The notes under the pieces: model-generated
What the model was told of the DNA's origin: nothing
The model's database searches: none
The model's input: the letters and a program-made list of their open reading frames with translations, nothing else
Shown here: one piece after another, positions 8,171 to 56,296 of the stretch
Layout of the letters: each line of letters begins with the position of its first letter
Position numbering within the stretch: position 1 is the stretch's first letter
Translations under genes and position numbers: made by a program
DNA from: Candidatus Sericytochromatia bacterium
GTDB taxonomy: Bacteria > Cyanobacteriota > Sericytochromatia > UBA7694
Length of the DNA stretch: 64,000 bases
NCBI GenBank assembly: GCA_044356335.1
Contig: JBIKWL010000006.1
Coordinates: 9,848 to 73,847, forward strand
Reading direction: 5' to 3'

Positions 8171-10917
8171 CTGACCTGAGCTTGGCGGCCGGTGGGGCTG
8201 GATTTGGTGAGTTTCCAGTTTTTCAGGTTTTGCGGCAATAGGCTGGCGATCCAAAAGCCGTCCGCGTCCACTGCCGGGCTGGTGTAAAAGGGCGCGTCAT
8301 CGGCAAAGATCTGCAGGGCCCCAGCCTCTAATTGGGTTGCGTCTGGCAAAGTGCTCCCGCTTTCGTTGACTTTGGGGTCCACCAGGGTAAAGGAGACATC
8401 TGTTTCGTAAATCTCTGCTTGAGCATCAACCACCCTTTCGGTGATCACCAGATTTTTCACCACGGGCGGGGTATTGTCCACACGGAAGGGAATTTTGTCT
8501 TTTTCTTTGATAAAGACCGTGGTGGGAACTGCGTATTTATATTTAGGAACCTGCACATAAATTTGAGGCGGGTTTTCTTCGAGATAGGGTTTGGGTTGCA
8601 ATATCAGGCTCAAAGAATATTCGCCATCAATCAGACAGTCTTTGGATGATTGCCAACCATCATAGACAATGGTTTGCAGGCCCTCTTGGCCTTTAAACAC
8701 ATCAGGGCTTTTCCAGTTGGGATCTTTCTTGGATGCAATAGCCATATCCCAGCGAACATAATGGAGGCCAGGAAAAGAGTTGATATCACCTGCCGTAATA
8801 AAATGCACTTTGTCGGCAACACCGTTAATATCTCTCGGTGAAAAGGTGACAGGATTAAAAGGCGCTCCCAGAGGGGGATTGGGAGCATGTTCCACTTTAA
8901 AGAACATTTTTAAATAACACCCGTTGTCTTCATCATAGTCAAAATACTCCTTTGGGCAATAATCGCATTCTCCGCCAATTGAGTTACCATTGGCATCAAT
9001 TTTAGGGACATAAATATATCCATCAGAGCAACTTCCATCTGGTTTCGGCGTGGGTGATGGGGGAGGCAGACAGATGGCTCCCTGAGGGCAGGGTGTGGGG
9101 TTTGGGTCTGGGCAAGTACTGCCAGAACAGGTGGGGGGAGGGCAAATGCCCGCAGGCGGACAGGCCACTTCTGGAGGCACAGGGGGTCTCGGTCCCGGGG
9201 TTGGTGGTTTAGGCTTACCGCTACAGATAGAACCTACAGGGCATTCTAAACACAGAGCAGGGATGTCCTCACAGCCAGAGCGTGATGTCGGGGGGGCTGT
9301 TGGTTCTTCGCTAGGATTTTTACGCGGACGGTTAGTCTGTTTGGGTGGTGTGGGTGGACCTGTTGGTCCTGTTCCTTCGGGTTCGATTCTGACGGTGGCC
9401 GTATCGCTTTTCCCGGCAGCTTCCAACTTAAATTCGACTTGTCCAATGCCACTCACATCGCCATTGGGGCCTTGGCATATCCCATCCCAGGTAAACTGGC
9501 TGCCAGCGGTGCCGAAGTCTTCGGGTTGACACGTCACCTCTTGAGACCCGGCCGCAATACTTTTGAGGGTGCCGCTGATCAGGGTGATTTTGCCTTTGGG
9601 GCAGACGGGTTGTTTGATTGTAAAAGTAAAAGGGACGGGGAGCCCAAAGGTGACAAGATAACCGCCAGGATTAAATGCGACCTCGCTGCTCGCCGTCACA
9701 GTGGTTTGACCCGGTTCTTTGGGGGCATTGGCGTCGTCGTATTCGGCGATCAGCTCGTATTCTCCATCGGGCACTTCGCCCCCAAAGGGAATGTCTGTTT
9801 TTGTGCCTTGACCACTGCTGAGAGTTGTCTCTGCAAATGTGCAATCCCCTTTCAGGCTTTTGGCCTTGGCTTTGAGGGTCCAAGGCCGACTGTCGTTAAC
9901 GGGATCCACAGTGATTTTGACTTGTTCACTATCTGCAGGCGAAAAACTGCCGGGAAAGGCCTGAACATCAATCAAATCAGGGCTCTCTTCGACAAAAGGG
10001 ACACGCACTGTTCCTTCAATCCGAAAATTCGCTGATCCCGTTGCACCAATATTCATGCAGGCATATTGCGGTTCTTCTTGCTCAGGACCAGCCACATTCA
10101 ACCAGTTCTGGCCGCTGGTCGTTGTGGGGCCGCTGGCACTGACCTTGAGCGTGGCGGTTTTATTGCCGGGAGTGAGCGTCAATGAAGAAGTCGGAGAAAA
10201 AGAGATCAGACCTGAGCTTTGCCAGAATTGGCAGACAGTGGGGCTCACACCTGTAATATTGTTCACATTATAGATACTGAACGAGAGAAAAGAATTGCCC
10301 CCATTGCTGACAGGTTGATAGGTTTTTCCATCTGTGCTGCTAAATTGCATGATGGAAGAGATCACCGAGCGATCGGTAAAAGGGGGATTGCCCCCTGTTG
10401 TATTCACCGCTTGGATATTGAGCGCCATGCGTATTTCTGTGGCAATGGTAAAACCCGATTCATTTTTACCCGTACTCAATACCTGAAACCCATAATCGAG
10501 ACTTGTGGCTTGGTCCGCACTGATACTGGAACTGTTGATTCCCCCTACACTCGGCCAGCCCATACTGGCACTCAAAGCAACCAGCCCACAGTCTTCAGCA
10601 GAACAGCTTTGGGGATAATCTTGGATTTTGAAGCCTTCAGGCACAAAAGGGTAGGAGCTGGGGTGTCCCTGGGGCCATTTCAATTCTTTTGGGTCGAGCC
10701 ATTTCCCTTGCCGGTAATGAAAATCCTTGGGAGCCAAAATATACGAGGCCTTGCGTGTGGCTTTTTTCAGAAGGGCGGGTGTCGGGTCCGGCGCTTTGAC
10801 CGCTGGCGGCTGCGCAGTACAAGAGAGCAGAAATAGCACCAACACCAGCCAGGTCGTACACGCGCGCCCAAATAGACCATTGACCCAAATTTGCATAAAA
10901 GCCCCCAAAGCAGCCAA
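8068..10917 (-). CDS. large secreted/lipid-anchored Cys- and Pro-rich surface protein (949 aa), function unknown
   Basis: N-terminal hydrophobic segment with LLSCT lipobox-like motif. Central PTGPPTPPK...CPPAGICPPPTCSGSTCPDPNPTPCPQGAICLPPPSPTPKP Cys/Pro-rich region. The track start is TTG at 10917; the first ATG (MQIWVNGL...) is at 10896. Confidence 0.6.
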   Translation of the reverse strand: MAALGAFMQIWVNGLFGRACTTWLVLVLFLLSCTAQPPAVKAPDPTPALLKKATRKASYILAPKDFHYRQGKWLDPKELKWPQGHPSSYPFVPEGFKIQDYPQSCSAEDCGLVALSASMGWPSVGGINSSSISADQATSLDYGFQVLSTGKNESGFTIATEIRMALNIQAVNTTGGNPPFTDRSVISSIMQFSSTDGKTYQPVSNGGNSFLSFSIYNVNNITGVSPTVCQFWQSSGLISFSPTSSLTLTPGNKTATLKVSASGPTTTSGQNWLNVAGPEQEEPQYACMNIGATGSANFRIEGTVRVPFVEESPDLIDVQAFPGSFSPADSEQVKITVDPVNDSRPWTLKAKAKSLKGDCTFAETTLSSGQGTKTDIPFGGEVPDGEYELIAEYDDANAPKEPGQTTVTASSEVAFNPGGYLVTFGLPVPFTFTIKQPVCPKGKITLISGTLKSIAAGSQEVTCQPEDFGTAGSQFTWDGICQGPNGDVSGIGQVEFKLEAAGKSDTATVRIEPEGTGPTGPPTPPKQTNRPRKNPSEEPTAPPTSRSGCEDIPALCLECPVGSICSGKPKPPTPGPRPPVPPEVACPPAGICPPPTCSGSTCPDPNPTPCPQGAICLPPPSPTPKPDGSCSDGYIYVPKIDANGNSIGGECDYCPKEYFDYDEDNGCYLKMFFKVEHAPNPPLGAPFNPVTFSPRDINGVADKVHFITAGDINSFPGLHYVRWDMAIASKKDPNWKSPDVFKGQEGLQTIVYDGWQSSKDCLIDGEYSLSLILQPKPYLEENPPQIYVQVPKYKYAVPTTVFIKEKDKIPFRVDNTPPVVKNLVITERVVDAQAEIYETDVSFTLVDPKVNESGSTLPDATQLEAGALQIFADDAPFYTSPAVDADGFWIASLLPQNLKNWKLTKSSPTGRQAQVSFTLRHRLAGHTLEVEVQDTLANTGRYILYPEGN

Positions 10918-11117: not shown

Positions 11118-12392
11118 TTAATGGAATTGAGCTTCTTCGGTGGAACCCGCCAGGGCCGTGGTGGAGCTGAGCCCCCCCGTGATCACCTGTTGAATTTCAT
11201 CAAAATAACCGGCACCGACAAAACGCTGATGCTTGACGGCACTAAACCCGTGCTGCTTTTCGAGCGCAAATTCGCGTTCTTGCAGGCGGGAATAGGCAGC
11301 CATGCCTTCGCGGCTGTAAGCTTCGGCCAGCTCAAAAGCGGCTGTATTCAGGGCATGAAAGCCCGCCAGGGTCACAAACTGGAAGCGGTAGCCCAGTTCA
11401 CCCAGGTTCTCTTGGAAGCGGGCAATCTCTGTTTCGGAGAGGTGGCGCTGCCAATTAAAAGACGGAGAGCAATTGTAGGCCAGCATTTTGCCCGGATACT
11501 GGGCGTGAATGGCCTGGGCAAATTCGCGGGCTTCACCCAGATCGGGGGTGGAGGTCTCACACCAGATCAGATCGGCATAAGGGGCATAAGCCAAACCTCT
11601 GGCTATGGCACAGTCGTTGCCACCTTTGAGGCGGAAAAAGCCCTCGCTGGTGCGCTCGCCGGTCAAAAAGGGCTGGTCGCGTTCGTCGATATCGCTGGTG
11701 AGGAGTTGGGCGGCCTGGGCGTCGGTGCGGGCCACCAGCACGGTGGGCACGTTCATCACGTCGGCAGCCAGGCGGGCGGCCACGAGTTTGCGGATAAATT
11801 CAGAGGTGGGTACCAGCACCTTGCCGCCCATATGGCCACATTTTTTTTCAGAGGCCAATTGGTCTTCAAAATGCACACCGGCGGCCCCGGCTTCGATCAG
11901 GGCTTTCATCAGCTCGTGGGCGTTGAGCACGCCGCCAAAACCAGCTTCGGCATCGGCCACAATCGGGGCAAACCAATCGCGGCTGGCCTCTCCCTGCAGA
12001 CATTCGATCTGATCGGCCCGTTGCAAAGCATTGTTGATCCGGCGCACCACAGCGGGCACGCTGTCGACCGGATACAGGCTCTGGTCGGGATAGGTTTGGC
12101 CTGCGCTATTGGCGTCACCAGCCACCTGCCAGCCACTCAGGTAAATGGCCTGCAGACCCGCTTGCACGTATTGAACAGCCTGATTGCCTGTTAAAGCGCC
12201 CAGGGCGCGCACAAAGGCCTGTTGCTTGATGCGCTGCCAGAGGGTTTCGGCACCATGGCGGGCCAATGTGTATTCGGGGGTGAGGCTGCCGCGCAAACGC
12301 AGCACCTGCTCGGCACTGTAAGGGCGTTGAATGCCTTGCCAGCGCTCACTTTGCCAGGATTTTTCGAGAGCTTGAATCGATTCGGGAGTCAT
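11118..12392 (-). CDS. aceA: isocitrate lyase
   Basis: 424 aa with the KKCGHMGGK signature and overall ICL architecture. Confidence 0.9.
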
Positions 12393-12404
12393 ATTTTTAT
12401 TCCT

Positions 12405-14021
12405 TTACAGACGTTGATACGCCAAGAGCGTTAAAAATTCGGGGAAATTCTCTGCTTGGAGCAATTGCTCCAGCAATTCGGCTGCGGCAGTATAGGCCCC
12501 GGCCTGATAGCGTTCGGCTCCGAGCAAATTGCGGATTTTGGCCAGTTCTTCGGGCAGCCAGGCCATCACTTTGGCAGGGTTCATTGCTTCGCCATTGCTG
12601 AAGCGGATCTCGGGCCGGTGCAGCCAGAGCCAGAGTTGGGCGCGGGAGATTTCCGCGGTGGCGGCATCTTCCATTAAATTGTTGATTGCCACTGCGCCTT
12701 GGCCCTGCAGCCAGGCCGAGAGGTATTGCAGTGCCACGCTGATATTCGTGCGCACACCGGTTTCGCTGATCTGCCCACCCGTTATTTCAAAATTGAGCAG
12801 GTCTTCGGCGGCAATCGTCGCCTCTGAACGCGAGACTTCTTTCTGGTGGGGCTTTGACCCCAAGGCGGCAAATGCCTCTCGGGCCACAGGCACCAGATCG
12901 GGGTGGGCCACCCAGGTGCCGTCAAAGCCCTGGCTCACTTCGCGCTCTTTGTCGGCCCGCACCTGTTTCAGCGCCATTTCGGTGATCTCAAGCTGGCGGC
13001 GATTGGGAATAAAGGCCGCCATGCCGCCCATGGCGTGGGCGCCGCGCCTGTGGCAGGTTTGCACGAGTAAATCGCAATAGGCGCGCATAAACGGCACCTG
13101 CATGGTGATCTGGGAGCGATCGGGCAGCACAAAGCCGGGGCGGTTGCGGAACTTTTTGATCACGCTGAAGATATAGTCCCAGCGGCCGGCGTTGAGCCCG
13201 GCGATGTGTTCGCGCAGGGCATAGAGGATTTCGTCCATTTCAAAGGCTGCCAGAATGGTTTCGATCAGCACCGTCGCTTTGATACTGCCCTGTGGGATGC
13301 CGAGCAGATTTTGGGCCCGCACAAAGACGTCGTTCCAGAGCGCGGCCTCTTGATAGCTTTCGAGTTTGGGCAAATAAAACCAGGGGCCCCGGCCTTGCTC
13401 CAGCAATGCTTTGGCATTGTGGAAAAAATACAAACCGAAGTCAAAGAGTGAGGCGGAGATGCCCTCGCCATTGACCCTTACATGTTTTTCGTCCAAATGC
13501 CAGCCGCGGGGACGCACCAGCAAGACTGCCGTTTCGGCCTTGAGGCTGTACACTTTTTCTCCACTCTGGTGGCTGAGGCTGCCGCGCACGGCTTGGTAGA
13601 GATTGGCCTGGCCTTGGACCATGTTTTCCCAGGTCGGGCTGGAGGCGTCTTCGCAATCGGCCATAAAGACATCTGCCCCCGAGTTCAGGGCGTTGATAAT
13701 CATCTTGGCGTCAATCGGCCCTGTGATTTCCACGTGGCGCTTTTGCAAGGCGGCAGGAATAGGGGCGATTTGCCAATCCCCGGCCCGCAGATCGGCACTT
13801 TCTGGCAAAAAGCCGGGCAGTTGGCCGGCATCGATCTGCTTTTGACGCTCTTGGCGCCGGGCCAAAAGGGCCTGACGGCGGGGATTAAATTCGCGTTGCA
13901 AGGTGGCAATAAATTCCAGGGCGGCGGGGGTCAAAATCTCGGGCTGGGTATGGGGAACATGGGCGGTGATTTCAAGGCCAGTGGGGAGGCTCAAAACGGG
14001 CATGGGGGAATCTCCTTTCAA
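12405..14021 (-). CDS. aceB: malate synthase A
   Basis: 538 aa, malate-synthase-A-like throughout, lying 12 nt upstream of aceA. This is the aceBA operon arrangement. Confidence 0.9.
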
Positions 14022-18008: not shown

Positions 18009-18533
18009 ATGTCGTCTGTCTCTGAGCCCTTATCTGCATTCGAAACGTCTTCCCTCGAAATCGCTTCATGGGAAAGCCAACGTGCGCCTGAGCCCGTGGG
18101 AGCTTATCCCCACGCTCGGCGGGTGGGCAATTTGCTCTTTTTGTCTGGTTTGGGGCCCCGGCAGCGCGGCAGCAAAACCATTCCGGGTGTGACCCTCGGC
18201 CCCAGCGGCGAAATTCTGGCTTACGATATCTCGCTCCAATGCCATTCGGTTTTTGCCAATGTGCGCACGGTGCTGCAAGAAGCGGGGGCCCGCTGGGAAG
18301 ATCTCGTCGATGTCACGGTCTACCTCACCGATATGCAGGCAGATTTTCAGACCTTTAACCGCCTCTGGGCTGAGTATTTTCCCGATCCGGCTACGCGTCC
18401 CTGCCGCACAACAGTTGAGGTGGGCGCTTTGCCCACGCCGATTGCGATTGAACTCAAATGCCTGGCCGAATTTAAATCCACCCAAGCCACTCAATCTGCT
18501 CAAGGAGCATCCCATGCTGCCCATCCCGATTAA
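18009..18533 (+). CDS. RidA/YjgF-family deaminase, probably 2-aminomuconate deaminase of the kynurenine branch
   Basis: 174 aa with a YjgF/RidA fold signature (...AYPHARRVGNLLFLSGL..., ...DVTVYLTDM...). The 2-aminomuconate deaminases AmnD and NbaF belong to this family. Its 3' end overlaps the HAAO gene start. Confidence 0.7.
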   Translation: MSSVSEPLSAFETSSLEIASWESQRAPEPVGAYPHARRVGNLLFLSGLGPRQRGSKTIPGVTLGPSGEILAYDISLQCHSVFANVRTVLQEAGARWEDLVDVTVYLTDMQADFQTFNRLWAEYFPDPATRPCRTTVEVGALPTPIAIELKCLAEFKSTQATQSAQGASHAAHPD

Positions 18534-19044
18534 TTTTATGCAGTGGATCGAAGACCACCGCGAATTGCTCAAGCCGCCTGTGGGCAATCAGGTGGTCTGG
18601 CAAGACACCGAATTTATGATCATGGTGGTGGGTGGGCCGAATACGCGCAAAGATTACCATATTAATCAGGGTGAAGAGTTCTTTTACCAGCTCGAAGGGG
18701 ATATCACCCTGAAAGTGATCGAGCAGGGCCAGCCCCGCGATTTACCGATTCGCCAGGGTGAGATTTTTCTCTTGCCGGGCAATGTGCCACACTCGCCCCG
18801 CCGTCCGGCCCACACCATCGGACTGGTGATCGAGCGCAAGCGCCGCGCTGACGAAATTGATGGCTTTCAGTGGTACTGTGAAAACTGTGGTCACAAGCTC
18901 TATGAGGAGTTTTTGCCCGTAACCGACATTGTCAGCCAATTGCCACCCGTCTTTGAGCGTTTTTTTAGCGACCCTGCCCATACCACCTGTGGCCAATGTG
19001 GCACAGTCATGGAACGTCCCGTCTCCCCTTCGGAGGAAAAATGA
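18514..19044 (+). CDS. 3-hydroxyanthranilate 3,4-dioxygenase
   Basis: Cupin with C-terminal rubredoxin-like CxxC...CxxC (CENCGHK...CGQCG). The AAGGAG RBS at 18503-18508 precedes ATG 18514; the track ORF 18253..19044 is over-extended at its N-terminus. Confidence 0.8.
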   Translation: MLPIPINFMQWIEDHRELLKPPVGNQVVWQDTEFMIMVVGGPNTRKDYHINQGEEFFYQLEGDITLKVIEQGQPRDLPIRQGEIFLLPGNVPHSPRRPAHTIGLVIERKRRADEIDGFQWYCENCGHKLYEEFLPVTDIVSQLPPVFERFFSDPAHTTCGQCGTVMERPVSPSEEK

Positions 19045-20057
19045 AAATAGATATCCACACCCATATTTTACCCGAAAAGCTGCCCAATTTTGTCGAAAAA
19101 TTTGGCTATCCAGGTTTTGTCGAACTGCATCACCACACGCCGGGCAAAGCCCTGATGGTCAAAGGCGGCAAGGTTTTTCGCGAAATCGACAGCAATTGCT
19201 GGGACCCGGCTGTGCGCCTGCTGGAATGTGATCAACACGCTGTCGATGTGCAGGTTTTGTCCACCATTCCGGTTTTGTTTAATTATTGGGCCGTGCCCGA
19301 AGACGCCCTCGAAGTTTCGCGCTATCTCAACGATCACTTGGCCGAAGTCGTGCGGGAGAACCCCCGCCGTTTTGTGGCCTTGGGCACCTTGCCTTTGCAA
19401 GAACCCAAGTTGGCGATTGCCGAACTCGAACGCTGCATGACCGAATTGGGGTTTGCCGGGATTGAAATTGGCACCCATGTCAACGATTGGAATCTCGATG
19501 AGCCTGCGCTCTTTCCGATTTTAGAGGCCTGTCAAGACCTCGGCGCTGCGGTTTTTGTCCACCCTTGGGACATGCGCGGCGTGAAAAATCTACAAAAATA
19601 CTGGCTGCCCTGGTTGGTGGCCATGCCCTTTGAAACCGCTGCTGCGATTTGTTCGCTGATCTTTGGCGGCGTGATGGAGCGTCTGCCCAAGCTGCGTTTG
19701 GCCTTTGCCCATGGGGGCGGGTCTTTTCCCTGCTTGGTGGGCCGGATTGAACACGGCTTTCAGGTGCGGCCCGATCTCTGTGCCGTGAATCAAATCCGCA
19801 ACCCGCGTGAGTATATTCGCCAGTTTTGGGTCGATTCACTGGTGCATGATGCCGGTTCGATGCGTGGTTTATTGGAGATCTTCGGTGAAAACCGGATTAT
19901 TTTGGGCAGCGATTATCCCTTCCCGCTGGGTGAAGATCATCCTGGCAGTCTGATTGAGTCGATGTCCGAAATTTCACCCGCGCTGCGTGAGAAACTGTTG
20001 TTTAGCAATGCGCTGGAGTGGCTCGGGCGCGAATCCCAGCATTTTTGCTGTAATTGA
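19041..20057 (+). CDS. 2-amino-3-carboxymuconate-6-semialdehyde decarboxylase (amidohydrolase_2 family)
   Basis: MKIDIHTHILPE... metal-binding HxH start and overall ACMSD-like sequence. ATG 19041 is preceded by GGAGGAAAA and overlaps the HAAO stop by 4 nt. Confidence 0.8.
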   Translation: MKIDIHTHILPEKLPNFVEKFGYPGFVELHHHTPGKALMVKGGKVFREIDSNCWDPAVRLLECDQHAVDVQVLSTIPVLFNYWAVPEDALEVSRYLNDHLAEVVRENPRRFVALGTLPLQEPKLAIAELERCMTELGFAGIEIGTHVNDWNLDEPALFPILEACQDLGAAVFVHPWDMRGVKNLQKYWLPWLVAMPFETAAAICSLIFGGVMERLPKLRLAFAHGGGSFPCLVGRIEHGFQVRPDLCAVNQIRNPREYIRQFWVDSLVHDAGSMRGLLEIFGENRIILGSDYPFPLGEDHPGSLIESMSEISPALREKLLFSNALEWLGRESQHFCCN

Positions 20058-20155: not shown

Positions 20156-21919
20156 ATGTTCAATTGTGGTAAAAAGTTTCAGCGATCTTCCCTGTCTATT
20201 TGCTTGGCCCTCTGTACCTGTCTGCTTCAGGCCTGTAATCCTGGCGACTTAGAGCGCCTCTTCAACCCTGCTGATTCTGAGCGCAATTCAACCCCCAATC
20301 AGGTCATTCCCGATGCAGAAACCCAAAGCAAGCCCAGTGCCGCTCCCTCGGGAGGTTTGCAAATTCCCTCGCCCCGTCCCAGTTTGTTTCGGCCACCGGG
20401 CCAGCAGAGTCCGATCCCCGTGTTGGCATCGGCTTCTCCGGGGGATGTCATCGCGATTTTGCCTGATCTGTACAATACCCGCATGCCGTTTAATTTTGGC
20501 TCTGTGGGTGCGCCGATGATCGGACGCCGCCATGAATTTTATGCGGGTCCCACCAGCCAATTTGCGCTGGATATTGAATTTAAAGCGCCATTGCCTGAGC
20601 TCGAAGGCAACGGTCTGATCGTCAAATCGGGTTCGGGTCAAATCTTGAAAAACCTGCGCAATTCAAATACGGTGTTGGTCAATGGCAACCTTGCTATTTT
20701 GGAATTAAATTGGAATGGCAAAGGCGACAAGCCCGAGGTCACGCTGCGGGCCTTGGGCAAAAAGAATTCAGGCGGGACATTCCCTGCCAAAGTCACAGCC
20801 TTGGGGGATCAGGTCAAGAGTATGCCTGTCACCCTTAATCAGCCGATCGAGGTTTTTTCGAACCCTGGTAACCAGGCCCAATTGCATTTTTTCACAGTCA
20901 CGGGCGTTCGGGGCAAAGACCTGGACATCATCGCAGATGGGCCGAGCACCGTCTATGTCAATCATGAGAGCCGGGGTTTTTTCTTTCCGAATGAAGGGAC
21001 CGCCCCCGATGAACGTATCGATGCGGGGAATCAGGGATTTGTGCATATCCCGGCCTCGCAGCAGGACACCCTGCTGGTGACGCTGGAAACCCCAGGCAAT
21101 TCCAAAGAGGCTGTTCATACGCGCTTCAGTGTCAACGAAGTCAAAGAGTTGATTGATTTAACCGTGCGTTTTCCGCGTCCACCCGCTGAATATGATATGG
21201 CTGGCCCGCAGACCTTGCTCGATCGAATGAGCGAAATTACCCGCTATGCCTCCTTGTCGCTCTACCAGATCACGGCAGGCCACACCCGCATTCGCAGTCT
21301 CAAAGTCTTGCTGGGGCAGGCCCAGCCTTTGGCCAAAATTGATGTGCGGGTCGATTCCAATTCCATCGCCCGTGATTTTATTCCTGAACATGCCGTTTTG
21401 GGGGGAACCCCTTTTGCTTTGATTGAACTTGAGAAAAAATGGTGGCTGCGTTTTAATACCCTCAGGGATCACCCCGGATTTGTCTTGGCGCACGAACTGA
21501 TCCACCACCGCTACGCGATTATGGATGAATATCTTGGCTCTTGGAAAATTGACGTGGAATTTCAATCGGGAAGTCTGGATGTCGGAATCGATCGTACCAG
21601 TACCAATTATTGTCCGAACTCTGTCATGTCTTCCCCTGTGGCTGAATTCTGCTGGCAGGGAAACCACAATCCCACGGGCAATCAAACCATTGCCTCACGT
21701 TTTGACAATCCCTTGACGCCCGGTGTGGTCGAAAAAAATTCCACCTGGGATCTCTATGCCTTTCGGGTGGGGGTGACTCCGCCCAATCATCACCCGCCTT
21801 TGATTCTCAAAGAGATTAAAAGATTGGAGCGCGACACCCAAACCAATGTGGTTTTGCCTTTGAGCAGCAGCATCGAAATGGGCACATTTTTGCCCGAGCT
21901 CAAAATCCCAACGCCTTAA
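20156..21919 (+). CDS. lipoprotein with HExxH motif (putative zinc metallopeptidase)
   Basis: Signal peptide with lipobox (LLQACN). FVLAHELIHHRYAIMDEY contains HExxH. Confidence 0.5.
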   Translation: MFNCGKKFQRSSLSICLALCTCLLQACNPGDLERLFNPADSERNSTPNQVIPDAETQSKPSAAPSGGLQIPSPRPSLFRPPGQQSPIPVLASASPGDVIAILPDLYNTRMPFNFGSVGAPMIGRRHEFYAGPTSQFALDIEFKAPLPELEGNGLIVKSGSGQILKNLRNSNTVLVNGNLAILELNWNGKGDKPEVTLRALGKKNSGGTFPAKVTALGDQVKSMPVTLNQPIEVFSNPGNQAQLHFFTVTGVRGKDLDIIADGPSTVYVNHESRGFFFPNEGTAPDERIDAGNQGFVHIPASQQDTLLVTLETPGNSKEAVHTRFSVNEVKELIDLTVRFPRPPAEYDMAGPQTLLDRMSEITRYASLSLYQITAGHTRIRSLKVLLGQAQPLAKIDVRVDSNSIARDFIPEHAVLGGTPFALIELEKKWWLRFNTLRDHPGFVLAHELIHHRYAIMDEYLGSWKIDVEFQSGSLDVGIDRTSTNYCPNSVMSSPVAEFCWQGNHNPTGNQTIASRFDNPLTPGVVEKNSTWDLYAFRVGVTPPNHHPPLILKEIKRLERDTQTNVVLPLSSSIEMGTFLPELKIPTP

Positions 21920-22042
21920 AAAGGCTGAGGAAATATTAAAAAAGATCTAAAATTCTGTAAAGACACACATCTGCGATCGGTTTTAAGCCTATAAATTGGG
22001 GGTATAAAGATCGTATCCCATTTCTTTGGAGTTATTTAAGCT

Positions 22043-23149
22043 ATGTCGAGTGCTGCTATCCGTGGAACTGGCCCTCTGAATCCCGCTCTTTTGCCAGCGG
22101 CCCCTGCTGCTCCGGCCCGTCCAAAATCTGCAACTTCTGCTGCCCCTGCGCCCGCCAGCGCGGCTCCTGCTGGTACGGCTTCCAGCGCCAAAATCAGTAG
22201 TGTGGATATGTGTCAGGGCTCTGCCAAAGCGGCCTGCAGCCTCGAAACGCCCGAAGCCTGTGTTGAGCCCTCTACGAGCAAACCCCCCAAGACCTTTTTT
22301 ATCAACGGCATTCGCACCCCCGAGCGCAGTGCCAAAGAAACCCAGGCGCTGATCTCCGAACGCTTGGGCGGTACCCTCGTGGAATTGGTGTACAACCCCA
22401 CCCACGGTCTGGTTGCTGATGCTGCAGAATCGCTGATGAATATTACCGGCGTGGACACCCAGATCTCCAAAGATATGCAGGGCCGTTTGCGCAAAGCCCT
22501 GGATGCTGGCGAAAAGGTGCGCGTCTTTGCCCACAGCCAAGGTGCAGCCATTACAGGGGATGCCTTACATGATATCGCCGCAGCCTATAAAAAAGTGGGC
22601 AAGTCAGACGCCGATGTGGCCAAGATTATGTCGCGCGTTGAGGTGATCAGCTTTGGGGGCTTTGCCGACAAAGACAGCTTTCCTGATGGGGTTAAATTTA
22701 ATCTCAACCGCGAGAAAGACGATTCGATTCCACAATTGGCGACCTCGTGTCTGGCCATTGGCAAAGATTATCGCGAGGTCTGCGCCGAGCCCAAAAAGCT
22801 CAAAAATTGGCTTGATCTCGGTGGCAGCGTACTCTCGGGCCTCGAAACCACGGGACGCAATGCTGCTCACAATGCCGGTCAAGCGGTTGTGAGTGCCTAT
22901 CGCAACAGCGATAAGCTTTGGGATGCCTTTGGCAAAGGCAAGTTCTTCGACAATCTCTTTAAAGGGGATGTCGATACTGCTTGCAGCCAATTTAATGCCA
23001 AGAGTTTGGACGCCTATTGTGCCCAGATTGGCAAAGATGTTACCTCGGACCATGTCACCGTGCTTTTGGACGCCAAAGGCAAGGCTTCAGCCGGTTATGT
23101 GGTGAAATACTTTGATGGCCTGCGTGGCCGCCAAGACAAAGTGGCCTAA
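22043..23149 (+). CDS. putative serine hydrolase/lipase with Ala/Pro-rich disordered N-terminus
   Basis: Nucleophile-elbow GxSxG motif in VRVFAHSQGAAITG. A PAAPAAPARPKSATSAAPAPASAAPAG low-complexity N-terminus precedes an alpha/beta-hydrolase-like core. Confidence 0.45.
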   Translation: MSSAAIRGTGPLNPALLPAAPAAPARPKSATSAAPAPASAAPAGTASSAKISSVDMCQGSAKAACSLETPEACVEPSTSKPPKTFFINGIRTPERSAKETQALISERLGGTLVELVYNPTHGLVADAAESLMNITGVDTQISKDMQGRLRKALDAGEKVRVFAHSQGAAITGDALHDIAAAYKKVGKSDADVAKIMSRVEVISFGGFADKDSFPDGVKFNLNREKDDSIPQLATSCLAIGKDYREVCAEPKKLKNWLDLGGSVLSGLETTGRNAAHNAGQAVVSAYRNSDKLWDAFGKGKFFDNLFKGDVDTACSQFNAKSLDAYCAQIGKDVTSDHVTVLLDAKGKASAGYVVKYFDGLRGRQDKVA

Positions 23150-33342: not shown

Positions 33343-33395
33343 GCATAGTAATTTAACACAATTGGGTATACTGAAACAAAAACTGGGAGGCCACC

Positions 33396-34187
33396 ATGAC
33401 GCTGATTCTTGCGATTCCCACTGCCCAAGGCATTGTTTTGGCTTCAGATACGCAATACACCAGCGGTGAGGTGCGCACCACTGGGCCCAAAATTTACCCG
33501 CTTAATGGCCAATGCGCCTGGGCCGGTGCTGGTGAAATTGCCCTGATTCAGCGCGTTCAGGAGGCCATTGAGGCCGCTTCGGCCCGCCATTCTTTGGCCG
33601 ATCTGCGCGACAGTCTTGCGCGGATGGTGCAGCAATCGGTCAGGGCCCTACTCGAACTCGATGTCTTAACCGAGTTTGTTCAAAGCGATCCCTCACTTTT
33701 GCTTTCGCTGCATCCCGGGGATTTTATTTTTGCTGAATTTAATCAAGGTCAGCCGCGCATGTTACACATTACGAGCAGCGGTACGCCCGAATGGATTTCA
33801 AGTCTCTTTGCCAGTGGCAATGGGGCCAATTTTGCCTATGCCCTGATGCAAAAATACCAAACCACTCAACTCAGCTTGGAAAGCGCGAGTTTATTGGCGT
33901 TTAAGGTGATCGATGAAACCATTCAGGTCGGGGCTTATGGCCTGGATTACCCCATCGATATCTGGCTGATCCGTGAAACGGGTCTGGCCCGCTTGGAAGA
34001 AAAAGAATTGTTTTTATTGGCCGAGGCCACCGAGACCCTGCGCCAAAAAGAAATTCGGCTCTTGCGCCAAGTGCCCTTTCAGTTTGAACCGACAAAACCC
34101 GCTAAAGAAAACAAGGACAGCAAAAAAGACCCAAATAGGGGCAAACTGAAAAAAACCGAAAAATCAGGTCCGGTTGTAGGAGCTTAG
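33396..34187 (+). CDS. proteasome-type Ntn-hydrolase (HslV/Anbu/BPH-like beta-subunit homologue) with Lys-rich C-terminal tail
   Basis: MTLILAIPTAQGIVLASDTQYTSG...GPKIYPL supplies Thr2, Asp18 and Lys32 at the positions of the proteasome beta catalytic Thr1/Asp17/Lys33. There is no propeptide. The tail reads ...KPAKENKDSKKDPNRGKLKKTEKSG. Confidence 0.55.
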   Translation: MTLILAIPTAQGIVLASDTQYTSGEVRTTGPKIYPLNGQCAWAGAGEIALIQRVQEAIEAASARHSLADLRDSLARMVQQSVRALLELDVLTEFVQSDPSLLLSLHPGDFIFAEFNQGQPRMLHITSSGTPEWISSLFASGNGANFAYALMQKYQTTQLSLESASLLAFKVIDETIQVGAYGLDYPIDIWLIRETGLARLEEKELFLLAEATETLRQKEIRLLRQVPFQFEPTKPAKENKDSKKDPNRGKLKKTEKSGPVVGA

Positions 34188-34786
34188 TTTTTGGAGACGG
34201 TTTCGTCGGCAATCACGGCTTTCTGCTGAGACTTGAGGCCCGCCAATTCCTGTTTGAGCGAAGCGATTTGCTGTTCCAACGAAGTGATGCGCTCGGCTTT
34301 GCTGACGGGTTCAGCGCTGATGGCTTCCTCTTCTTCTTTGTCCGAGGGATGGGCCACTTTGTCCATCACTTTGTGGATATTCTCAGTGCCTTTTTCGAGC
34401 AATTCTTTTACGAAGCGGGCCCGCTGATCTTCGGCCAATTCGCCGCGTTTGACCAGTTCATTGACAATTTCATCGAGTTTTTCACGGGTCAGAGAGGCCA
34501 AGCCAATCCCGCCGAGCAGGAATTTTTTAATGACTGACTCAATGTTCTGACCTTCTTGGATCAGCCCCTGCAGCACAAATTTATTTAAAAAGAGCTGCTT
34601 GGTTTCGAGATTTTCTTGCAAAAAGATCTGGCCGAGAATCTTGGGGGTGATGTCGTGGCCCTGGCTATCGATCACCTGGATATCGTCGCCCTGGCGGATC
34701 ATATCGGCAATTTCACCCAGGTTAACCGTTTTGCTGGTCTGGGTATCATATAGTTTGCGGTTATCGTAACGCTTAATGACTCGCAC
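34184..34786 (-). CDS. PhaR-like PHA/PHB accumulation regulator (N-terminal PHB_acc_N DNA-binding domain + coiled-coil/phasin-like C-terminus)
   Basis: N-terminus VIKRYDNRKLYDTQTSKTVNLGEIADMIRQGDDIQVIDSQGHDITPKILGQI matches the PhaR N-terminal domain. Convergent with the proteasome-like gene; the stops overlap by 4 nt. Confidence 0.65.
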   Translation of the reverse strand: MRVIKRYDNRKLYDTQTSKTVNLGEIADMIRQGDDIQVIDSQGHDITPKILGQIFLQENLETKQLFLNKFVLQGLIQEGQNIESVIKKFLLGGIGLASLTREKLDEIVNELVKRGELAEDQRARFVKELLEKGTENIHKVMDKVAHPSDKEEEEAISAEPVSKAERITSLEQQIASLKQELAGLKSQQKAVIADETVSKN

Positions 34787-34921: not shown

Positions 34922-35983
34922 ATGTGGTATCAAAATTTACTCGAAGCAAATCAAATTCCCGATCCCCTGCTGCGCTGGGGAATCCGCTATTACAATTCAA
35001 TGCATCTGCGTCGCCTGGCCAGAGGGGGAGCAGAGGCTCATGAGGCCCGCTTTCAGGCCTTTTTGAAGCAGCTTGAAAAGGCCCCGCTTGCAGCCCTGCC
35101 CGAAAAAGCCAACGAACAGCATTACGAGGTACCCGCTGCTTTTTATCAAAAGGTGCTGGGCCCCCATTTAAAATACAGCTGTGGTTATTGGCCGAGTGGC
35201 CAAGAGAGTCTGGCCGAATCTGAAGCCAAAATGTTGGCCCTGACCTGTGAGCGGGCCCAATTGGAGCAACTCAAACCCGGTCAACAGATCTTGGAATTGG
35301 GCTGTGGCTGGGGCTCGCTCAGCCTTTATATGGCTCAACACTTCCCTGAGAACCCCATCACGGCGGTCTCTAATTCCCACAGTCAGCGTGCCTATATCGA
35401 AACCCAGGCCCAGAGCCGGGGTTTAACCAATCTGCGCGTGATCACCCAGGATATCAACCAGTTTGAACCCGAGCAGGGTTTTGATCGGATTGTCTCGGTT
35501 GAAATGTTTGAACACCTGCGCAATTATCCCGAACTCTTTCGCCGTTTAGAGCGCTGGCTCTTGCCTGGTGCATTGCTCTTTGTGCATATCTTTGGCCACC
35601 ACACCCATGCCTATCTCTTTGAGGTGGAACACGAGCGGGATTGGATGGCTCGCTATTTTTTCAGTGGCGGCACCATGCCCTCACGGGATTTGCTCTTACA
35701 TGTCTGTGAGCCGCTGATCGCCCGCAATCTCTGGGTCGTCAATGGCCAACACTACCAAAAGACCTGTGAGGCCTGGCTGGCCCAAATGGACGCCCAAGAA
35801 GCGGTCATTCGTCCGATTCTGGCAGCCACCTATGGGGCCGAGCAGACCACCCGTTGGTGGGTCTATTGGCGCGTGTTTATGCTGGCCTGCGCTGAACTCT
35901 TTGGCCACAGAGCAGGCCAGGAGTGGCAGGTCTATCATTATTTATTTGAAAAACCCGAGCAGGCAATCAGTTCAACTGACTGA
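34922..35983 (+). CDS. cyclopropane-fatty-acyl-phospholipid synthase family methyltransferase
   Basis: ILELGCGWGSL (SAM motif I) with CMAS-family features: ...RIVSVEMFEH... and ...YFFSGGTMPS.... Confidence 0.75.
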   Translation: MWYQNLLEANQIPDPLLRWGIRYYNSMHLRRLARGGAEAHEARFQAFLKQLEKAPLAALPEKANEQHYEVPAAFYQKVLGPHLKYSCGYWPSGQESLAESEAKMLALTCERAQLEQLKPGQQILELGCGWGSLSLYMAQHFPENPITAVSNSHSQRAYIETQAQSRGLTNLRVITQDINQFEPEQGFDRIVSVEMFEHLRNYPELFRRLERWLLPGALLFVHIFGHHTHAYLFEVEHERDWMARYFFSGGTMPSRDLLLHVCEPLIARNLWVVNGQHYQKTCEAWLAQMDAQEAVIRPILAATYGAEQTTRWWVYWRVFMLACAELFGHRAGQEWQVYHYLFEKPEQAISSTD

Positions 35984-36884
35984 TCACGCTGTTCATGCGG
36001 TGTAAGTGGTTGGCCACTTCGGCCGAGGTCTCATCAATGATCGTCATGATGCCTTTGGCTTGTACCTGTTGGCCCTGCCATTCTTTCTGAAAGCTGCCAT
36101 TCCAACGGCTCCAGGCGTCGTCAAGCTCGCCTTTGATCTGTTGGCGGGCATTGGCATCGATGGTATCGATAAAAGGGCCCTGAGTGGTAAAAAACTGATT
36201 GTAGATCAGATTGGCCTTGAGGGCCTCGTTATAGGTGGTGATGCCTTGTTTCTTGGCTTCGTTGAGCAAGCTGACTGCCTGATCGCGAAACTCCGTGACA
36301 CGGGCCATCATCACTTGTTTTTGCTGAGGGTCCATTTTTCCCCATTGGGAATAAACCTGTTCAGCGGTTTCTGCGGCCTGAGCGGCATAATAGCGGGCAC
36401 CCCAGGTAAATCGGTTGGCTGTTTCGCGGGATTGTTTGGCCGCGTCACTGTGGGCGGCAATTAATTGCACTGCCTGTTGGGGGGCCTGCACGGGTTGGGT
36501 CTCCTGTTGAAGGATTTCCTGGATATTGGCCATGGCTGGCCCTTCGGGAATGTCTTTGGGCAGGGTAAATATAATTTTGGCGGGCTCAGCCGGTTTTGTT
36601 GGGCCTGCCGGCTGGGACGGCTGCTGGGGTTTGTTGAGATAGTCCACGGGCTTGCCATCGGGGCGGTGAAAGGGCGAGAGGGTGGATTGTTTGTCGCGCA
36701 GCAGATTGATATTCGGCTGAATGCCACGGGCCATCGGCTGGGTGCTGACACTGTCTCCACTGAAACCTGAGGGAGGAGCGCTGGGAGGCTCATTGCCGCG
36801 TGCAAAGGGCGACATCGGGGAGCGGTTGGGGGATGCTCCCGGTATGGAGGGGTTAGAAGCGGGCTGCGGTTGTACCGAATTCAT
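35967..36884 (-). CDS. hypothetical protein with Pro/Gln/Ser-rich disordered N-terminal half and helical C-terminal domain; paralogue of 36889..37902
   Basis: 305 aa. The C-terminal region (...ITTYNEALKANLIYNQFF...DDAWSRWNGSFQKEWQ) aligns with the neighbour's ...ATYDEALYANLAMDELL...QEAWKGWTTGVEE. Confidence 0.5.
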   Translation of the reverse strand: MNSVQPQPASNPSIPGASPNRSPMSPFARGNEPPSAPPSGFSGDSVSTQPMARGIQPNINLLRDKQSTLSPFHRPDGKPVDYLNKPQQPSQPAGPTKPAEPAKIIFTLPKDIPEGPAMANIQEILQQETQPVQAPQQAVQLIAAHSDAAKQSRETANRFTWGARYYAAQAAETAEQVYSQWGKMDPQQKQVMMARVTEFRDQAVSLLNEAKKQGITTYNEALKANLIYNQFFTTQGPFIDTIDANARQQIKGELDDAWSRWNGSFQKEWQGQQVQAKGIMTIIDETSAEVANHLHRMNSVISQLN

Positions 36885-36888
36885 GGGA

Positions 36889-37902
36889 CTACCTCTGGAT
36901 CATGACCCGGCCGAGGATCTGGTCTACCTGATTGAGGTAAGCCGTCACCGTACCAACCGAGCGGGTAAATACCTCGGGCGCTGCAGGCAGCTTCTTGGAG
37001 AAGAAGAGATACTGGCTCTCTTCGACACCCGTGGTCCAACCTTTCCAGGCTTCTTGAACGCTGCGGTTGGCATCTTGGGCCAAACCGGGCACCTGTGGGA
37101 AGCGCGGCAGCAATTCATCCATGGCCAAATTGGCGTAGAGGGCTTCGTCGTAAGTGGCTTTGGTGTACTCTTCGGCGCGTTTGAGGGATTCCAGAGCTTG
37201 GCTTTTTTTGGACTCCAACTCGCTCAGGGTTTGATTCAATTGCTGAGGAGGCATCCGGCCTTGGCTCTGTTCAATGCGCTGAGCCAAAACAGCGGCTTCT
37301 TTGGCAAGGCCTTCGGCATGGCGTGATTCTTCTTCAGCGTGGCGGCGGTTGTCCAAGGACTTTTTGGCGTGCAAATCGATGTGGCGGAAAGCAGTGCCAG
37401 GATCTTGAACCTGTTGTAGGTCACCAGCCACCACTTGGCGGGCCTGGTTGATATCGGTTCCGGGAGGAGCAGCAGGCATAGAGCTTGGGGGGGGCATGCC
37501 CGGCGGGGGCATACCTGGGCCGCCCTGACCCGGCTGTTGGGGTTGGGGTTGCTGGGCTTTGTCTTTGCCAAAGCCAAACATCCCAAAAATACCTTTAAAG
37601 AGTTTGACCACAAGGCTGACGATTGTATTCAGAATTTTGGCGATAATGCTGGTCAGAGAGGTGAAGATATTGGCCATGCCGGTGGCCGCGCCACCAATGG
37701 AAGAAGAGGCACCAGATGCTGCCATGGCTCCCTGTACATACCCTGTTTGCTGAGGGCCGGTGGGGCGATAGACGTCATTGGCATAGCCGGGGGCACCATA
37801 AGGAACTTGGCCAGAGGGCACATAAGGACCATTTTGATTGCCATAATTGGGGACAGGGGGTCCGTAGGCCTGGTACTGGGGCGAAATATTCACTTTAGAC
37901 AC
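36889..37902 (-). CDS. hypothetical protein with Tyr/Pro/Gln/Gly-rich prion-like N-terminus, one hydrophobic helix, poly-Pro/Gln linker and helical C-terminal domain
   Basis: 337 aa. N-terminus MSKVNISPQYQAYGPPVPNYGNQNGPYVPSGQVPYGAPGYANDVYRPTGPQQTGY. Hydrophobic segment NIFTSLTSIIAKILNTIVSLVVKLFKGIFGMF, then QQPQPQQPGQGGPGMPPPGMPPP. A 4-nt gap separates it from the downstream paralogue. Confidence 0.5.
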   Translation of the reverse strand: MSKVNISPQYQAYGPPVPNYGNQNGPYVPSGQVPYGAPGYANDVYRPTGPQQTGYVQGAMAASGASSSIGGAATGMANIFTSLTSIIAKILNTIVSLVVKLFKGIFGMFGFGKDKAQQPQPQQPGQGGPGMPPPGMPPPSSMPAAPPGTDINQARQVVAGDLQQVQDPGTAFRHIDLHAKKSLDNRRHAEEESRHAEGLAKEAAVLAQRIEQSQGRMPPQQLNQTLSELESKKSQALESLKRAEEYTKATYDEALYANLAMDELLPRFPQVPGLAQDANRSVQEAWKGWTTGVEESQYLFFSKKLPAAPEVFTRSVGTVTAYLNQVDQILGRVMIQR

Positions 37903-38002: not shown

Positions 38003-38554
38003 CTACTTATGTTTTTTTTTGTGTTTTTTTGCTGGGCGTCGGCCGGATCTGCGCCGGAGACGCTTCAACATCGAAACAATTTCATCGGCGAGTGTATGGC
38101 TAAAACCGCCCAACCACAAGCCCACAAACCCCACTCCCACATAAACAGGATTCTGAAAAAAGACGGCCGTCTGCTTGGCGAGGCCAAAACCCTGCTCTGC
38201 CAATTGAGCTTGGTCAAGGGCCAGGGCCACACGGGTCAGGGTGGCAAAAAGCAGGGCGACCCAAACCGAAAGGTAGAGCAAACGCGTCAGCACGCCCAGA
38301 ACCGGTCCGTGCGAAAAAGGGGAACGGTGAGGAACCAGTTTGCGGTAGGGGATCCAAATCCAGCGAAACCAGCCCCAACGCTTATATTGTACACTTTTTG
38401 TATCCAGATCTCCACTAAACATCAAGCCTGCGAACAAAAAGCAGGCAACCAGAAGGGCTGTAACACTCAATTCGTGCGAGATCATCCAGCCGAGCCAGGC
38501 CATTGGCAGGGCCGTGAACCATGTGATTTTGTCATGGGTTTTACCACTGGGCAC
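38003..38554 (-). CDS. DUF457/YdjM-like membrane-bound metal-dependent hydrolase
   Basis: 183 aa, multi-TM, with conserved His motifs (GKTHDK, SGDLDTKS...HRSPFSHG, FSHTLADEIV) matching the YdjM-family pattern. Basic C-terminal tail RRRSGRRPAKKHKKKHK. Confidence 0.45.
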   Translation of the reverse strand: MPSGKTHDKITWFTALPMAWLGWMISHELSVTALLVACFLFAGLMFSGDLDTKSVQYKRWGWFRWIWIPYRKLVPHRSPFSHGPVLGVLTRLLYLSVWVALLFATLTRVALALDQAQLAEQGFGLAKQTAVFFQNPVYVGVGFVGLWLGGFSHTLADEIVSMLKRLRRRSGRRPAKKHKKKHK

Positions 38555-55606: not shown

Positions 55607-56296
55607 ATGCTGCGCGTGCTGATTCGATTCGAAGGGATGGCCCTCTTTCTCACCCTTCTCATTCTCTCGACCTTTGTGCATTTGCGCATGCCCTATTTTT
55701 CTGTTCTGGCCCCCCAATTGCCCGATGCTGAGCCCTGGTTAACCAGCTCCTGGTTCTATGTGGGCAGCTATACTGCCAATTTGCAATTGCTGGTGGTGAT
55801 GGCCTGTATCTTGCTTTTGAGTACGCCTTTGGCCACATTGACGTTGATTGTTTATTTATCGTTGGGCTTGATGGGCCTGCCGATTTATTATAACGGCGGT
55901 GGCTTGGCGTATTTGCAACAGCCCACCACGGGCTATTTGATCAGCCTGATTCCGGCGGCTTGGTTTTGTGGTCTTTTGTTGCATCGTCACCCCCGCCGCG
56001 TGCCTTTGCCGGGCCCTTATTTGTTGGCGGCGGTGTTGACCTTGGTGATGATCCACGTTTTGGGGGCAATCTATGCCGCTGTCTATTTTCAGATGGTGCC
56101 CGTGCAATTTATCGGTGCCTATGTCTTACCCCAATTGCCCTGGCAGATCACCCTGCTCTGCCTGATGGCATTGGCCATTTTTCAGTGGAACCGCTACCGT
56201 TTCAGCCATTTGCGCAAAGGCAAAGCACCTGTCGGAAAACAAAAATCCACAGCTGGGCCTGCTGCCCGTCGCCGTCTCAGCCCTGGGCGCGCCTGA
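55607..56296 (+). CDS. bioY: BioY-family biotin transporter (ECF S-component-like)
   Basis: Five or six TM segments plus the BioY signature GLMGLPIYYNGGGLAYLQQPTTGYL. Confidence 0.65.
   Translation: MLRVLIRFEGMALFLTLLILSTFVHLRMPYFSVLAPQLPDAEPWLTSSWFYVGSYTANLQLLVVMACILLLSTPLATLTLIVYLSLGLMGLPIYYNGGGLAYLQQPTTGYLISLIPAAWFCGLLLHRHPRRVPLPGPYLLAAVLTLVMIHVLGAIYAAVYFQMVPVQFIGAYVLPQLPWQITLLCLMALAIFQWNRYRFSHLRKGKAPVGKQKSTAGPAARRRLSPGRA

Follow-up and report, generated by a model that had tools for sequence, protein, structure and literature searches.

A standalone, predicted N-terminal-threonine hydrolase of the proteasome superfamily in Candidatus Sericytochromatia, and its relatives coupled to an antitoxin-like gene

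The gene at positions 33396 to 34187 in a 64,000-nucleotide stretch of a Candidatus Sericytochromatia genome (GenBank assembly GCA_044356335.1, contig JBIKWL010000006.1; this whole stretch is called the window below) encodes a protein of 263 amino acids (aa) from the proteasome superfamily. We found that this protein carries the invariant catalytic residues of a proteasome beta subunit in a beta-type fold, that it starts directly with Met-Thr, that it belongs to a family distinct from all of the well-described proteasome-type proteases, and that no partner subunit or unfoldase is encoded with it in the window. Our preferred reading, to which we assign a probability of about 0.6, is that the protein is a catalytically competent N-terminal-Thr hydrolase working without partners as a homo-oligomeric, ATP-independent peptidase. 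The window gene is probably an ordinary member of a known, experimentally uncharacterised cluster of proteasome homologues, probably WPH (for "Widespread Proteasome Homolog"), to which its own lineage has added a Lys-rich tail.

Catalytic site, fold and family

The features of the gene and its product are the following, with codon positions given in window coordinates.

33385 to 33390, plus strand: Shine-Dalgarno sequence GGGAGG, 5 nt 5′ of the start codon, from direct reading of the sequence.
33396 to 34187, plus strand: complete coding sequence of the proteasome-family N-terminal nucleophile (Ntn) hydrolase, 263 aa plus stop, from the open reading frame (ORF), the Pfam family PF00227, the AlphaFold2 (AF2) model and Foldseek.
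33399 to 33401, plus strand: codon of Thr2, the predicted N-terminal nucleophile (Thr1) after loss of the initiator Met; invariant (121 of 121) and aligned with beta-subunit Thr1.
33447 to 33449, plus strand: codon of Asp18, equivalent to Asp17; invariant.
33489 to 33491, plus strand: codon of Lys32, equivalent to Lys33; invariant and aligned with Lys33 of beta5.
33531 to 33533, plus strand: codon of Gly46, equivalent to Gly47 of the oxyanion hole; invariant.
33816 to 33824, plus strand: G141-N142-G143, counterpart of the G128-S129-G130 loop of beta subunits, from the beta5 alignment.
33999 to 34070, plus strand: long C-terminal helix H5, residues 202–225, as in Anbu and WPH, from DSSP on the AF2 model, conservation in the family and the coverage by Anbu.
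34071 to 34184, plus strand: Lys-rich tail, residues 226–263, predicted to be disordered (predicted local distance difference test score, pLDDT, 58–62), with a "TEK" unit; found in one clade only.

The match to PF00227 spanned residues 4–177 and scored 48.2 bits, where the cutoff is 22.4 (E = 1.3e-12), which places the protein in the proteasome superfamily. In HMMER alignments, Thr2, Asp18 and Lys32 stood opposite Thr1, Asp17 and Lys33 of beta5, and neither these residues nor Gly46 varied in any of the 121 homologues or of the 38 loci examined, from bacteria and archaea alike. The initial annotation had described a standalone Ntn hydrolase of the proteasome type in which the Thr/Asp/Lys set is intact, and the Pfam match and the invariance of these residues bear this out; the best matches of the protein are proteasome subunits. 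It had also noted a Met-Thr start lacking a propeptide. The ATG at 33396 is the earliest start after the upstream in-frame stop, and because it is the first one available and is preceded by the Shine-Dalgarno sequence, a propeptide is impossible. The N-terminus M-T-(L/I) is family-wide.

A segment resembling an SG.G motif (SGNGANFAYAL) had been pointed out as well. This segment is present, with G141 and G143 as invariant glycines. What aligns with Ser129, however, is Asn142, at a position that varies across the family (S, N, V, T, I or M). Ser129, Asp166 and Ser169 are the residues that support the Thr1 site in 20S beta subunits. At position 179 (Gly179 in the window protein, codon 33930–33932), most family members have Gly, while 9 of the 16 standalone deltaproteobacterial members have Asp, so that a canonical Asp166-type residue is confined to one clade. 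Further polar residues are invariant and specific to the family, namely Q20, T22, Q52, D72, D89, H106, D109, E114, H124, E132, Y154, E174 and E219.

The AF2 model (pLDDT 90.4; predicted template modelling score, pTM, 0.83) has the canonical S1–S10/H1–H5 order, which ends in a 24-residue C-terminal helix (202–225) followed by low-confidence coil. Foldseek matched it with a probability of 1.00 to beta5/beta5i, to archaeal and actinobacterial beta subunits and to Anbu. Helix H5 is conserved throughout the family, with E219 invariant; a coiled-coil type of pairing through this helix is a prediction made for WPH in the paper that described it, and the helix is seen here in a single-chain model.

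We propose that methionine aminopeptidase, whose action is permitted with Thr at residue 2, would remove the initiator Met and so expose the Thr1 nucleophile without any autocatalytic cleavage of a propeptide. Asp18 and Lys32 would then complete the triad, and Gly46 would form the oxyanion hole. If Anbu, BPH and HslV are a guide, copies of the protein probably come together as a homo-oligomer, held by lateral contacts of the beta type and by H5–H5 contacts, and probably cleave unfolded proteins or peptides without need of ATP. The disordered basic tail on an acidic core may project from the outer surface of such an assembly, where it would probably bind a polyanion or an acidic partner electrostatically, or serve in self-regulation.

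Scores against the NCBIfam equivalogs were far below threshold, at 37.8 (cutoff 224) for the archaeal beta subunit (TIGR03634), 11.9 (cutoff 191.9) for the bacterial beta subunit (TIGR03690) and 14.9 for the archaeal alpha subunit; the matches thus included both arc_protsome_B and arc_protsome_A, and at E ≤ 10 no HslV model was returned. The hidden Markov model (HMM) classification therefore gave a protein that passes the superfamily threshold and falls well short of the 20S beta equivalogs. A search of the PDB with the single sequence had an alpha subunit as its top match and beta5 next. A family profile built from 65 sequences was also run against the whole set of PDB sequences. There, beta subunits of archaea and eukaryotes came first at only about 35 bits, an alpha subunit scored about 27 bits, and no Anbu, HslV or BPH chain was among the top 60 matches. 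An HMMER scan of 1.84 billion cluster representatives returned only 22, 93 and 283 clusters (50% identity) at E ≤ 1e-30, 1e-10 and 1e-3, respectively. Judged by these sequence comparisons, the protein belongs to a small, tight and distinct prokaryotic family, at the same distance from the 20S alpha as from the 20S beta subunits. Its members come from Deltaproteobacteria, Actinomycetota, Planctomycetota, Methylacidiphilum, Chloroflexi, Acidobacteria, Binatia, Saccharibacteria, Firmicutes, Methanoregula and Methanomassiliicoccales.

Fuchs, Alva and Lupas described 22 new clusters of proteasome homologues in 2021, among them WPH, represented by WP_040339656.1, and reported no informative genomic context for the new clusters (PMC8665760). 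Their Table 1 lists WPH in Proteobacteria, Actinobacteria, the PVC (Planctomycetes-Verrucomicrobia-Chlamydiae) group, other bacteria, Euryarchaeota and other archaea, and lists the PHD cluster without PVC and archaea (PMC8665760). The present family shares with WPH the lack of a propeptide, the conservation of Thr1, Asp17, Lys33 and Gly47, the absence of an associated AAA+ partner, similarity to both 20S alpha and 20S beta, a long C-terminal H5 (predicted to form a coiled coil in WPH) and a spread over Proteobacteria, Actinobacteria, PVC, other bacteria and Euryarchaeota. It differs in that about one third of its members have a coupled antitoxin-like partner, and the window protein adds its clade-specific Lys-rich tail. 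The PHD cluster (OGP72033.1) was rejected on distribution only, as the present family has both PVC and archaeal members.

The other known proteasome-type proteases resemble the window protein in part. Anbu (PDB 5NYW, 5NYG) has a comparable length (about 240 aa), a Met-Thr start without a propeptide, the proteasome-beta fold and a long C-terminal helix, and of the PDB structure matches it covered the largest part of the model (template modelling, TM, score 0.66–0.67), because the long H5 is common to both. The resemblance is at the level of the fold, however, with only 12–18% identity in the structural alignments, and the ATP-grasp, transglutaminase-like and alpha-E genes of the Anbu operon are absent from the window and are not conserved neighbours in about 40 family loci. 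The 20S beta subunits (archaeal PsmB, eukaryotic beta5/beta5i, actinobacterial PrcB) gave the best sequence and structure matches and share the Thr1/Asp17/Lys33 triad and Gly47. Unlike these, the window protein has no alpha partner in the window or the family loci, no propeptide, no conserved equivalents of Ser129, Asp166 and Ser169, and a longer H5. HslV (ClpQ) is likewise a bacterial Thr1 protease of the superfamily, but it has about 175 aa compared with 263 aa, H5 is present in the window protein, and no HslU is encoded in the window. The beta-proteobacterial proteasome homologue (BPH; PDB 5OVS) is also a standalone bacterial protein with no known unfoldase; it falls, however, in the compact "group I" without the C-terminal S12/H5 (PMC8665760), whereas the window protein has H5, and no BPH chain was found among the top sequence or structure matches. 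Equivalog scores, PDB ranks and architecture rule out identity with HslV, Anbu, BPH or a canonical 20S beta subunit. Of the suggestion that the gene encodes an orphan BPH- or Anbu-like protease, the orphan state stood, in a context that is none of those described, and the family assignment did not.

Inheritance of the window gene and its Lys-rich tail

Pfam analysis of all 41 large ORFs of the 64-kb window found no alpha subunit, no HslU or other AAA+ protein, no ATP-grasp and no transglutaminase protein, in agreement with the absence of such neighbours noted at the outset, and a search of the window with the family HMM, even at E ≤ 10, brought up no other proteasome-like ORF. An alpha-like paralogue was likewise not found near any of the roughly 40 family loci. 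Within the window, the protease is therefore a single-copy, partner-less chromosomal gene.

The nearest relatives, from metagenome-assembled genomes of Candidatus Blackallbacteria and Candidatus Sericytochromatia, were 91–98% identical and had the same gene order, which was common to the window and five Sericytochromatia/Blackallbacteria loci. Within this clade, the ratio of nonsynonymous to synonymous substitution rates (dN/dS) of the core was 0.015–0.036, at synonymous divergences from 0.2 to saturation. The gene is thus functional and has been passed on vertically, with very strong purifying selection acting on its core. With a Pfam match at E = 1.3e-12, more than 226 homologues and a low core dN/dS, it is also more than a chance resemblance. 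A deep, non-photosynthetic sister lineage of the Cyanobacteria has thus retained a strongly constrained, partner-less, predicted Thr1 protease.

The highly basic C-terminus reported for this protein was also found. Residues 226–263 contain 9 Lys and 1 Arg against 5 Asp/Glu and have a pI of 9.9, as opposed to 4.8 for the core. No other of the 41 window genes has a C-terminus as rich in Lys, although net positive charge is higher in the tails of two membrane proteins. A DUF2227 metal-binding membrane protein (38003–38554, minus strand) has a strongly basic end (…RLRRRSGRRPAKKHKKKHK, net +11 over the last 35 aa), and a BioY protein (55607–56296) has a C-terminus that is likewise basic.

The Lys-rich tail was confined to the Sericytochromatia/Blackallbacteria clade, and tails elsewhere in the family were short and often acidic. 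Among near-identical relatives, the number of "TEK" copies (34140–34184 in the window) varied, with one copy in the window and in locus L011, two in L012 and three in L010, which looks like a length change of the replication-slippage type in a coding region of low complexity. The dN/dS of the tail in the Sericytochromatia clade was 0.06–0.57, compared with 0.015–0.036 for the core, a sign that selection on the tail is relaxed. From the core and tail dN/dS values, the restriction of the tail to one clade, the TEK variation and the predicted disorder, we concluded that a functional, vertically inherited gene carries a tail that is a disordered, fast-evolving, lineage-specific appendage and not a feature of the family.

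A coupled partner in relatives and the competing readings

We clustered the neighbours of about 40 family loci. The sole neighbour conserved across phyla was an ORF of about 146 aa that lies directly upstream of the protease gene on the same strand in 13 loci, or about one third of the sampled family. These loci come from Anaerolineae, Binatia, Actinomycetota, Thermodesulfobacteriota, Planctomycetota, Acidobacteria, Firmicutes and Verrucomicrobia as well as from unbinned contigs, and thus represent eight phyla or more. The stop codon of the partner falls within the ATGA at the protease start in 12 of these 13, an arrangement that points to translational coupling. NCBI locus tags showed the same adjacency in three further genomes. 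The cassettes are the following.

L003, 7564 to 8750, same-strand pair: partner and protease.
L008, 5564 to 6741, same-strand pair: partner and protease.
L009, 5567 to 6684, same-strand pair: partner and protease.
L044, 5570 to 6705, same-strand pair: partner and protease.
L007, L015, L016, L018, L025, L026, L029, L034 and L038: further cassettes.

With 370 hits, the partner family is similar in size to that of the protease, and several lines of evidence liken it to the Panacea antitoxin domain. Three of eight partner sequences matched the Pfam family SocA_Panacea below threshold (best 23.4 bits, cutoff 25.7), and two partner homologues carry a precomputed PF13274 annotation. In PADLOC, the partner matched PDC-M19A and, weakly, DarG at model positions 177–272. 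Its AF2 model (pLDDT 90.7) had as its best PDB match chains B and D of 7yk3, the Mycobacterium tuberculosis DarTG complex (TM score 0.60–0.62, probability 1.00, E = 2.5e-3), and its invariant Y-G-P motif is reminiscent of the "GPV" signature of Panacea. When a partner profile was searched against PDB sequences, the only matches were weak ones to winged helix-turn-helix (wHTH) proteins of the MarR type. DUF4065/Panacea has been found to be homologous to the C-terminal, toxin-inhibiting domain of DarG, also with 7YK3 as the best match (PMC13621843), and this domain of DarG sequesters DarT (PMC7003065).

Several cassettes lie in surroundings of the defence type. The cassette stands between HmaA and HmaB, beside HEC-01 and PDC-S01, in L003 and L008, between the methyltransferase and the restriction subunit of a Type III system in L009, next to a large N6/N4 methyltransferase in Methylacidiphilum kamchatkense (L044), and in an island of restriction-modification and mobile-element genes in L007. 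Genes embedded in such systems are often defence genes themselves, which Payne et al. termed "guilt by embedding" (10.1101/2024.01.29.577857). PADLOC matched no model to the protease itself, and no family member was found on sequenced plasmids, in phages or in IMG/VR viral contigs. A search for residues that separate the partnered from the standalone proteins found none, and the catalytic set is universal.

In its small upstream protein resembling Panacea or DarG's C-terminal domain, its coupled downstream enzyme and its location in defence islands, the pair in these relatives is similar to type II toxin-antitoxin (TA) systems of the PanAT/DarTG type. It differs from these in that a proteasome-like protease is not among the partners of the antitoxin domain in the Panacea and NetFlax papers, and in that the window gene is unpartnered. 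The word "proteasome" is absent from the main text of the embedded-defence paper and from the Panacea and NetFlax papers and their supplements. As Fuchs et al. gave no context either, the pairing appears to be unreported within the searchable literature.

Beside the window gene, no partner ORF was found in any reading frame at E ≤ 10, and the other standalone loci, including that of the isolate Desulfobacca acetoxidans, had no partner either. The standalone members fall into two clades, one being Sericytochromatia and the other a large group of Deltaproteobacteria, and housekeeping genes surround them in an order peculiar to each clade. Their neighbours are clade-local only, being methyltransferase, PhaR and CMAS genes in Sericytochromatia and either dprA-protease-topA-trmFO or xseA-xseB-ispA-dxs in Deltaproteobacteria, and no unfoldase was found among them. 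In a midpoint-rooted neighbour-joining tree, the partnered members branched deeply at scattered positions, and the standalone clades were nested between them. Since this tree carries no support values, it does no more than hint at whether the partner was gained or lost. Both forms occur in cultured organisms, the partnered one in Methylacidiphilum kamchatkense (WP_039722253.1, whose partner has 144 aa) and the standalone one in Desulfobacca acetoxidans (WP_013707553.1).

In one deltaproteobacterial subclade (L022, L024, L030–L033 and L037), the homologue sits between dprA and topA-trmFO. In Bacillus subtilis, we take the dprA-topA-trmFO neighbourhood to run on into xerC-hslV-hslU; nothing recognisable as such a continuation into xerC-hslVU followed trmFO within the fetched flanks of these loci. 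The standalone homologue of D. acetoxidans DSM 11109 (L045; CP002629.1, 2890550–2903257) lies beside a HEPN/nucleotidyltransferase pair, a gene for a YafQ-type toxin and a truncated RtcR-like regulator, and is therefore near toxin-antitoxin genes despite having no Panacea-like partner.

Several points weigh against our preferred reading of a competent, partner-less peptidase. The equivalents of Ser129, Asp166 and Ser169 are Asn142, Gly179 and Gly182 in the window protein and are not conserved, so that the efficiency or the chemistry of catalysis may differ. The assignment to WPH, though the most likely one, was made by distribution and features and not by direct sequence comparison. The antitoxin-like partner to which about one third of the sampled family is coupled, in defence islands, suggests a conditional, possibly toxic activity rather than a housekeeping one. 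The ancestral form could accordingly have been a two-gene module of the TA or anti-phage kind, in which the upstream antitoxin of the Panacea/DarG-C-terminal type sequesters the protease, and the protease, once released (for example, in phage infection), degrades cellular or phage proteins. The window gene would then be a domesticated or orphaned, partner-less descendant of this effector, still conditionally activated and potentially harmful, and restrained by other means, possibly by its basic tail. The upstream partner in 13 loci of at least eight phyla and in three further genomes, its coupling to the protease start, its likeness to SocA_Panacea, PF13274, DarG, PDC-M19A and 7yk3 together with the Y-G-P motif, the cassettes within Hma and Type III restriction-modification contexts and beside the M. 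kamchatkense methyltransferase, and the deep, scattered branches of the partnered members all speak for such an origin. We nevertheless consider this account of the window gene rather unlikely: a partner is missing in every frame, the surrounding genes are housekeeping ones in a clade-conserved order, and a dN/dS of about 0.02 fits a constitutive cellular role. No residue sets the partnered proteins apart, sequenced plasmids, phages and viral contigs yielded no family member, and the protease is absent from PADLOC; the partner, which weakly resembles wHTH regulators (MarR/PadR), could instead be a transcription factor or an adaptor, the tree carries no support values, and both toxicity and neutralisation are putative. 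A broader form of the idea seems possible to us, and we put it forward tentatively, namely that the family is, or derives from, the effector of an unreported two-gene immune or TA module, and that the standalone Sericytochromatia and deltaproteobacterial clades have been domesticated to a cellular role. To our knowledge, proteasome homologues other than HslV, Anbu, BPH and connectase have no known function. If true, the effector module would for the first time place one of the "new" proteasome homologues in a functional context, and would make this the first proteasome-type protease implicated in prokaryotic conflict systems; the antitoxin-type pairing, if confirmed, would give a first functional handle on this branch, with both forms at hand in cultured organisms.

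The remaining readings fare less well. A non-degradative Ntn enzyme dedicated to one defined substrate (for example an amidase, a connectase-like ligase or a processing peptidase), present as a monomer or a small oligomer, would accommodate the unconserved supporting residues, the many invariant family-specific polar residues, which suggest a specialised pocket or interface, and the one-to-one coupling with a small partner in one third of the family; connectase, a monomeric ligase, is already part of the proteasome-like family, and several of the new homologues appear to be incompatible with ring assembly (PMC8665760). We regard this as improbable, however, as the model has the canonical S1–S10/H1–H5 layout without a connectase-type insertion over the active site, as the top structural matches are ring-forming beta subunits and Anbu over the whole fold including H5, and as no candidate substrate gene is conserved beside the standalone forms. 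Automatic annotation of relatives in JGI and UniRef as "20S proteasome alpha/beta subunit" or "proteasome beta subunit" would agree with a canonical 20S beta subunit, HslV or Anbu that has its partners encoded in another part of the genome, and the absence of partners has been established over 64 kb of the genome. The distance from the equivalog cutoffs, the lack of an HslV match, the absence of a propeptide, a length well above that of HslV, the ranks of Anbu, HslV and BPH beyond the top 60 PDB matches, the tight cluster that the family forms by itself and the lack of an alpha-like paralogue at about 40 loci make this very improbable. Loss of the Ser129, Asp166 and Ser169 equivalents could also signal inactivity, as in an alpha-like structural pseudo-enzyme or a decaying remnant. 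Set against the invariance of Thr2, Asp18, Lys32 and Gly46 in bacteria and archaea, a core dN/dS of about 0.02, an intact frame and a strong Shine-Dalgarno sequence, a catalytically dead protein is hardly credible, and the remnant is effectively refuted. The competent homo-oligomeric peptidase is thus the reading that we favour for the window protein.

Surroundings of the gene

The GC content of the protease gene was not anomalous. On its 5′ side lie, in divergent orientation, genes for an M19 dipeptidase and a 557-aa protein with a methyltransferase domain, and a sigma-70 promoter scan of the 53-bp divergent intergenic region found nothing. On its 3′ side, a convergent gene for a PhaR-type regulator (34184–34786, minus strand) is followed by one for a CMAS-type methyltransferase, and the 3′ ends of the protease and PhaR-type genes overlap by 4 nt (34184–34187). 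Terminator-like hairpins at 33857–34175 are on the minus strand, within the protease gene. As far as the sequences tell, the flanking genes have no functional link to a protease. The Pfam content of the window comprises genes of the glyoxylate shunt, the kynurenine pathway and haem biosynthesis together with transport, signalling and glycosyltransferase genes.

Some further observations concern other parts of the window. Large ORFs (1001, 949, 587 and 368 aa) at 5036–10917 (minus strand) and 20156–23149 (plus strand) had no Pfam match at E ≤ 1e-4. Two adjacent paralogues of 305 and 337 aa (35967–36884 and 36889–37902, minus strand), with N-terminal halves rich in Pro, Gln and Gly, likewise had no Pfam match, and the pair was conserved in all of the Sericytochromatia/Blackallbacteria loci. 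A gene of the RidA/L-PSP family (18009–18533) stands just 5′ of genes for a 3-hydroxyanthranilate 3,4-dioxygenase and an amidohydrolase_2 protein (ACMSD-like), and the whole (18009–20057) looks like a cluster for the kynurenine/quinolinate branch. The dioxygenase ORF as listed (18253–19044) overlaps the RidA ORF; because its Pfam match starts only at residue 92, the gene probably starts further downstream than listed. The enzymes of the glyoxylate shunt, isocitrate lyase and malate synthase, are encoded next to each other at 11118–14021 (minus strand) in this Sericytochromatia-type genome.

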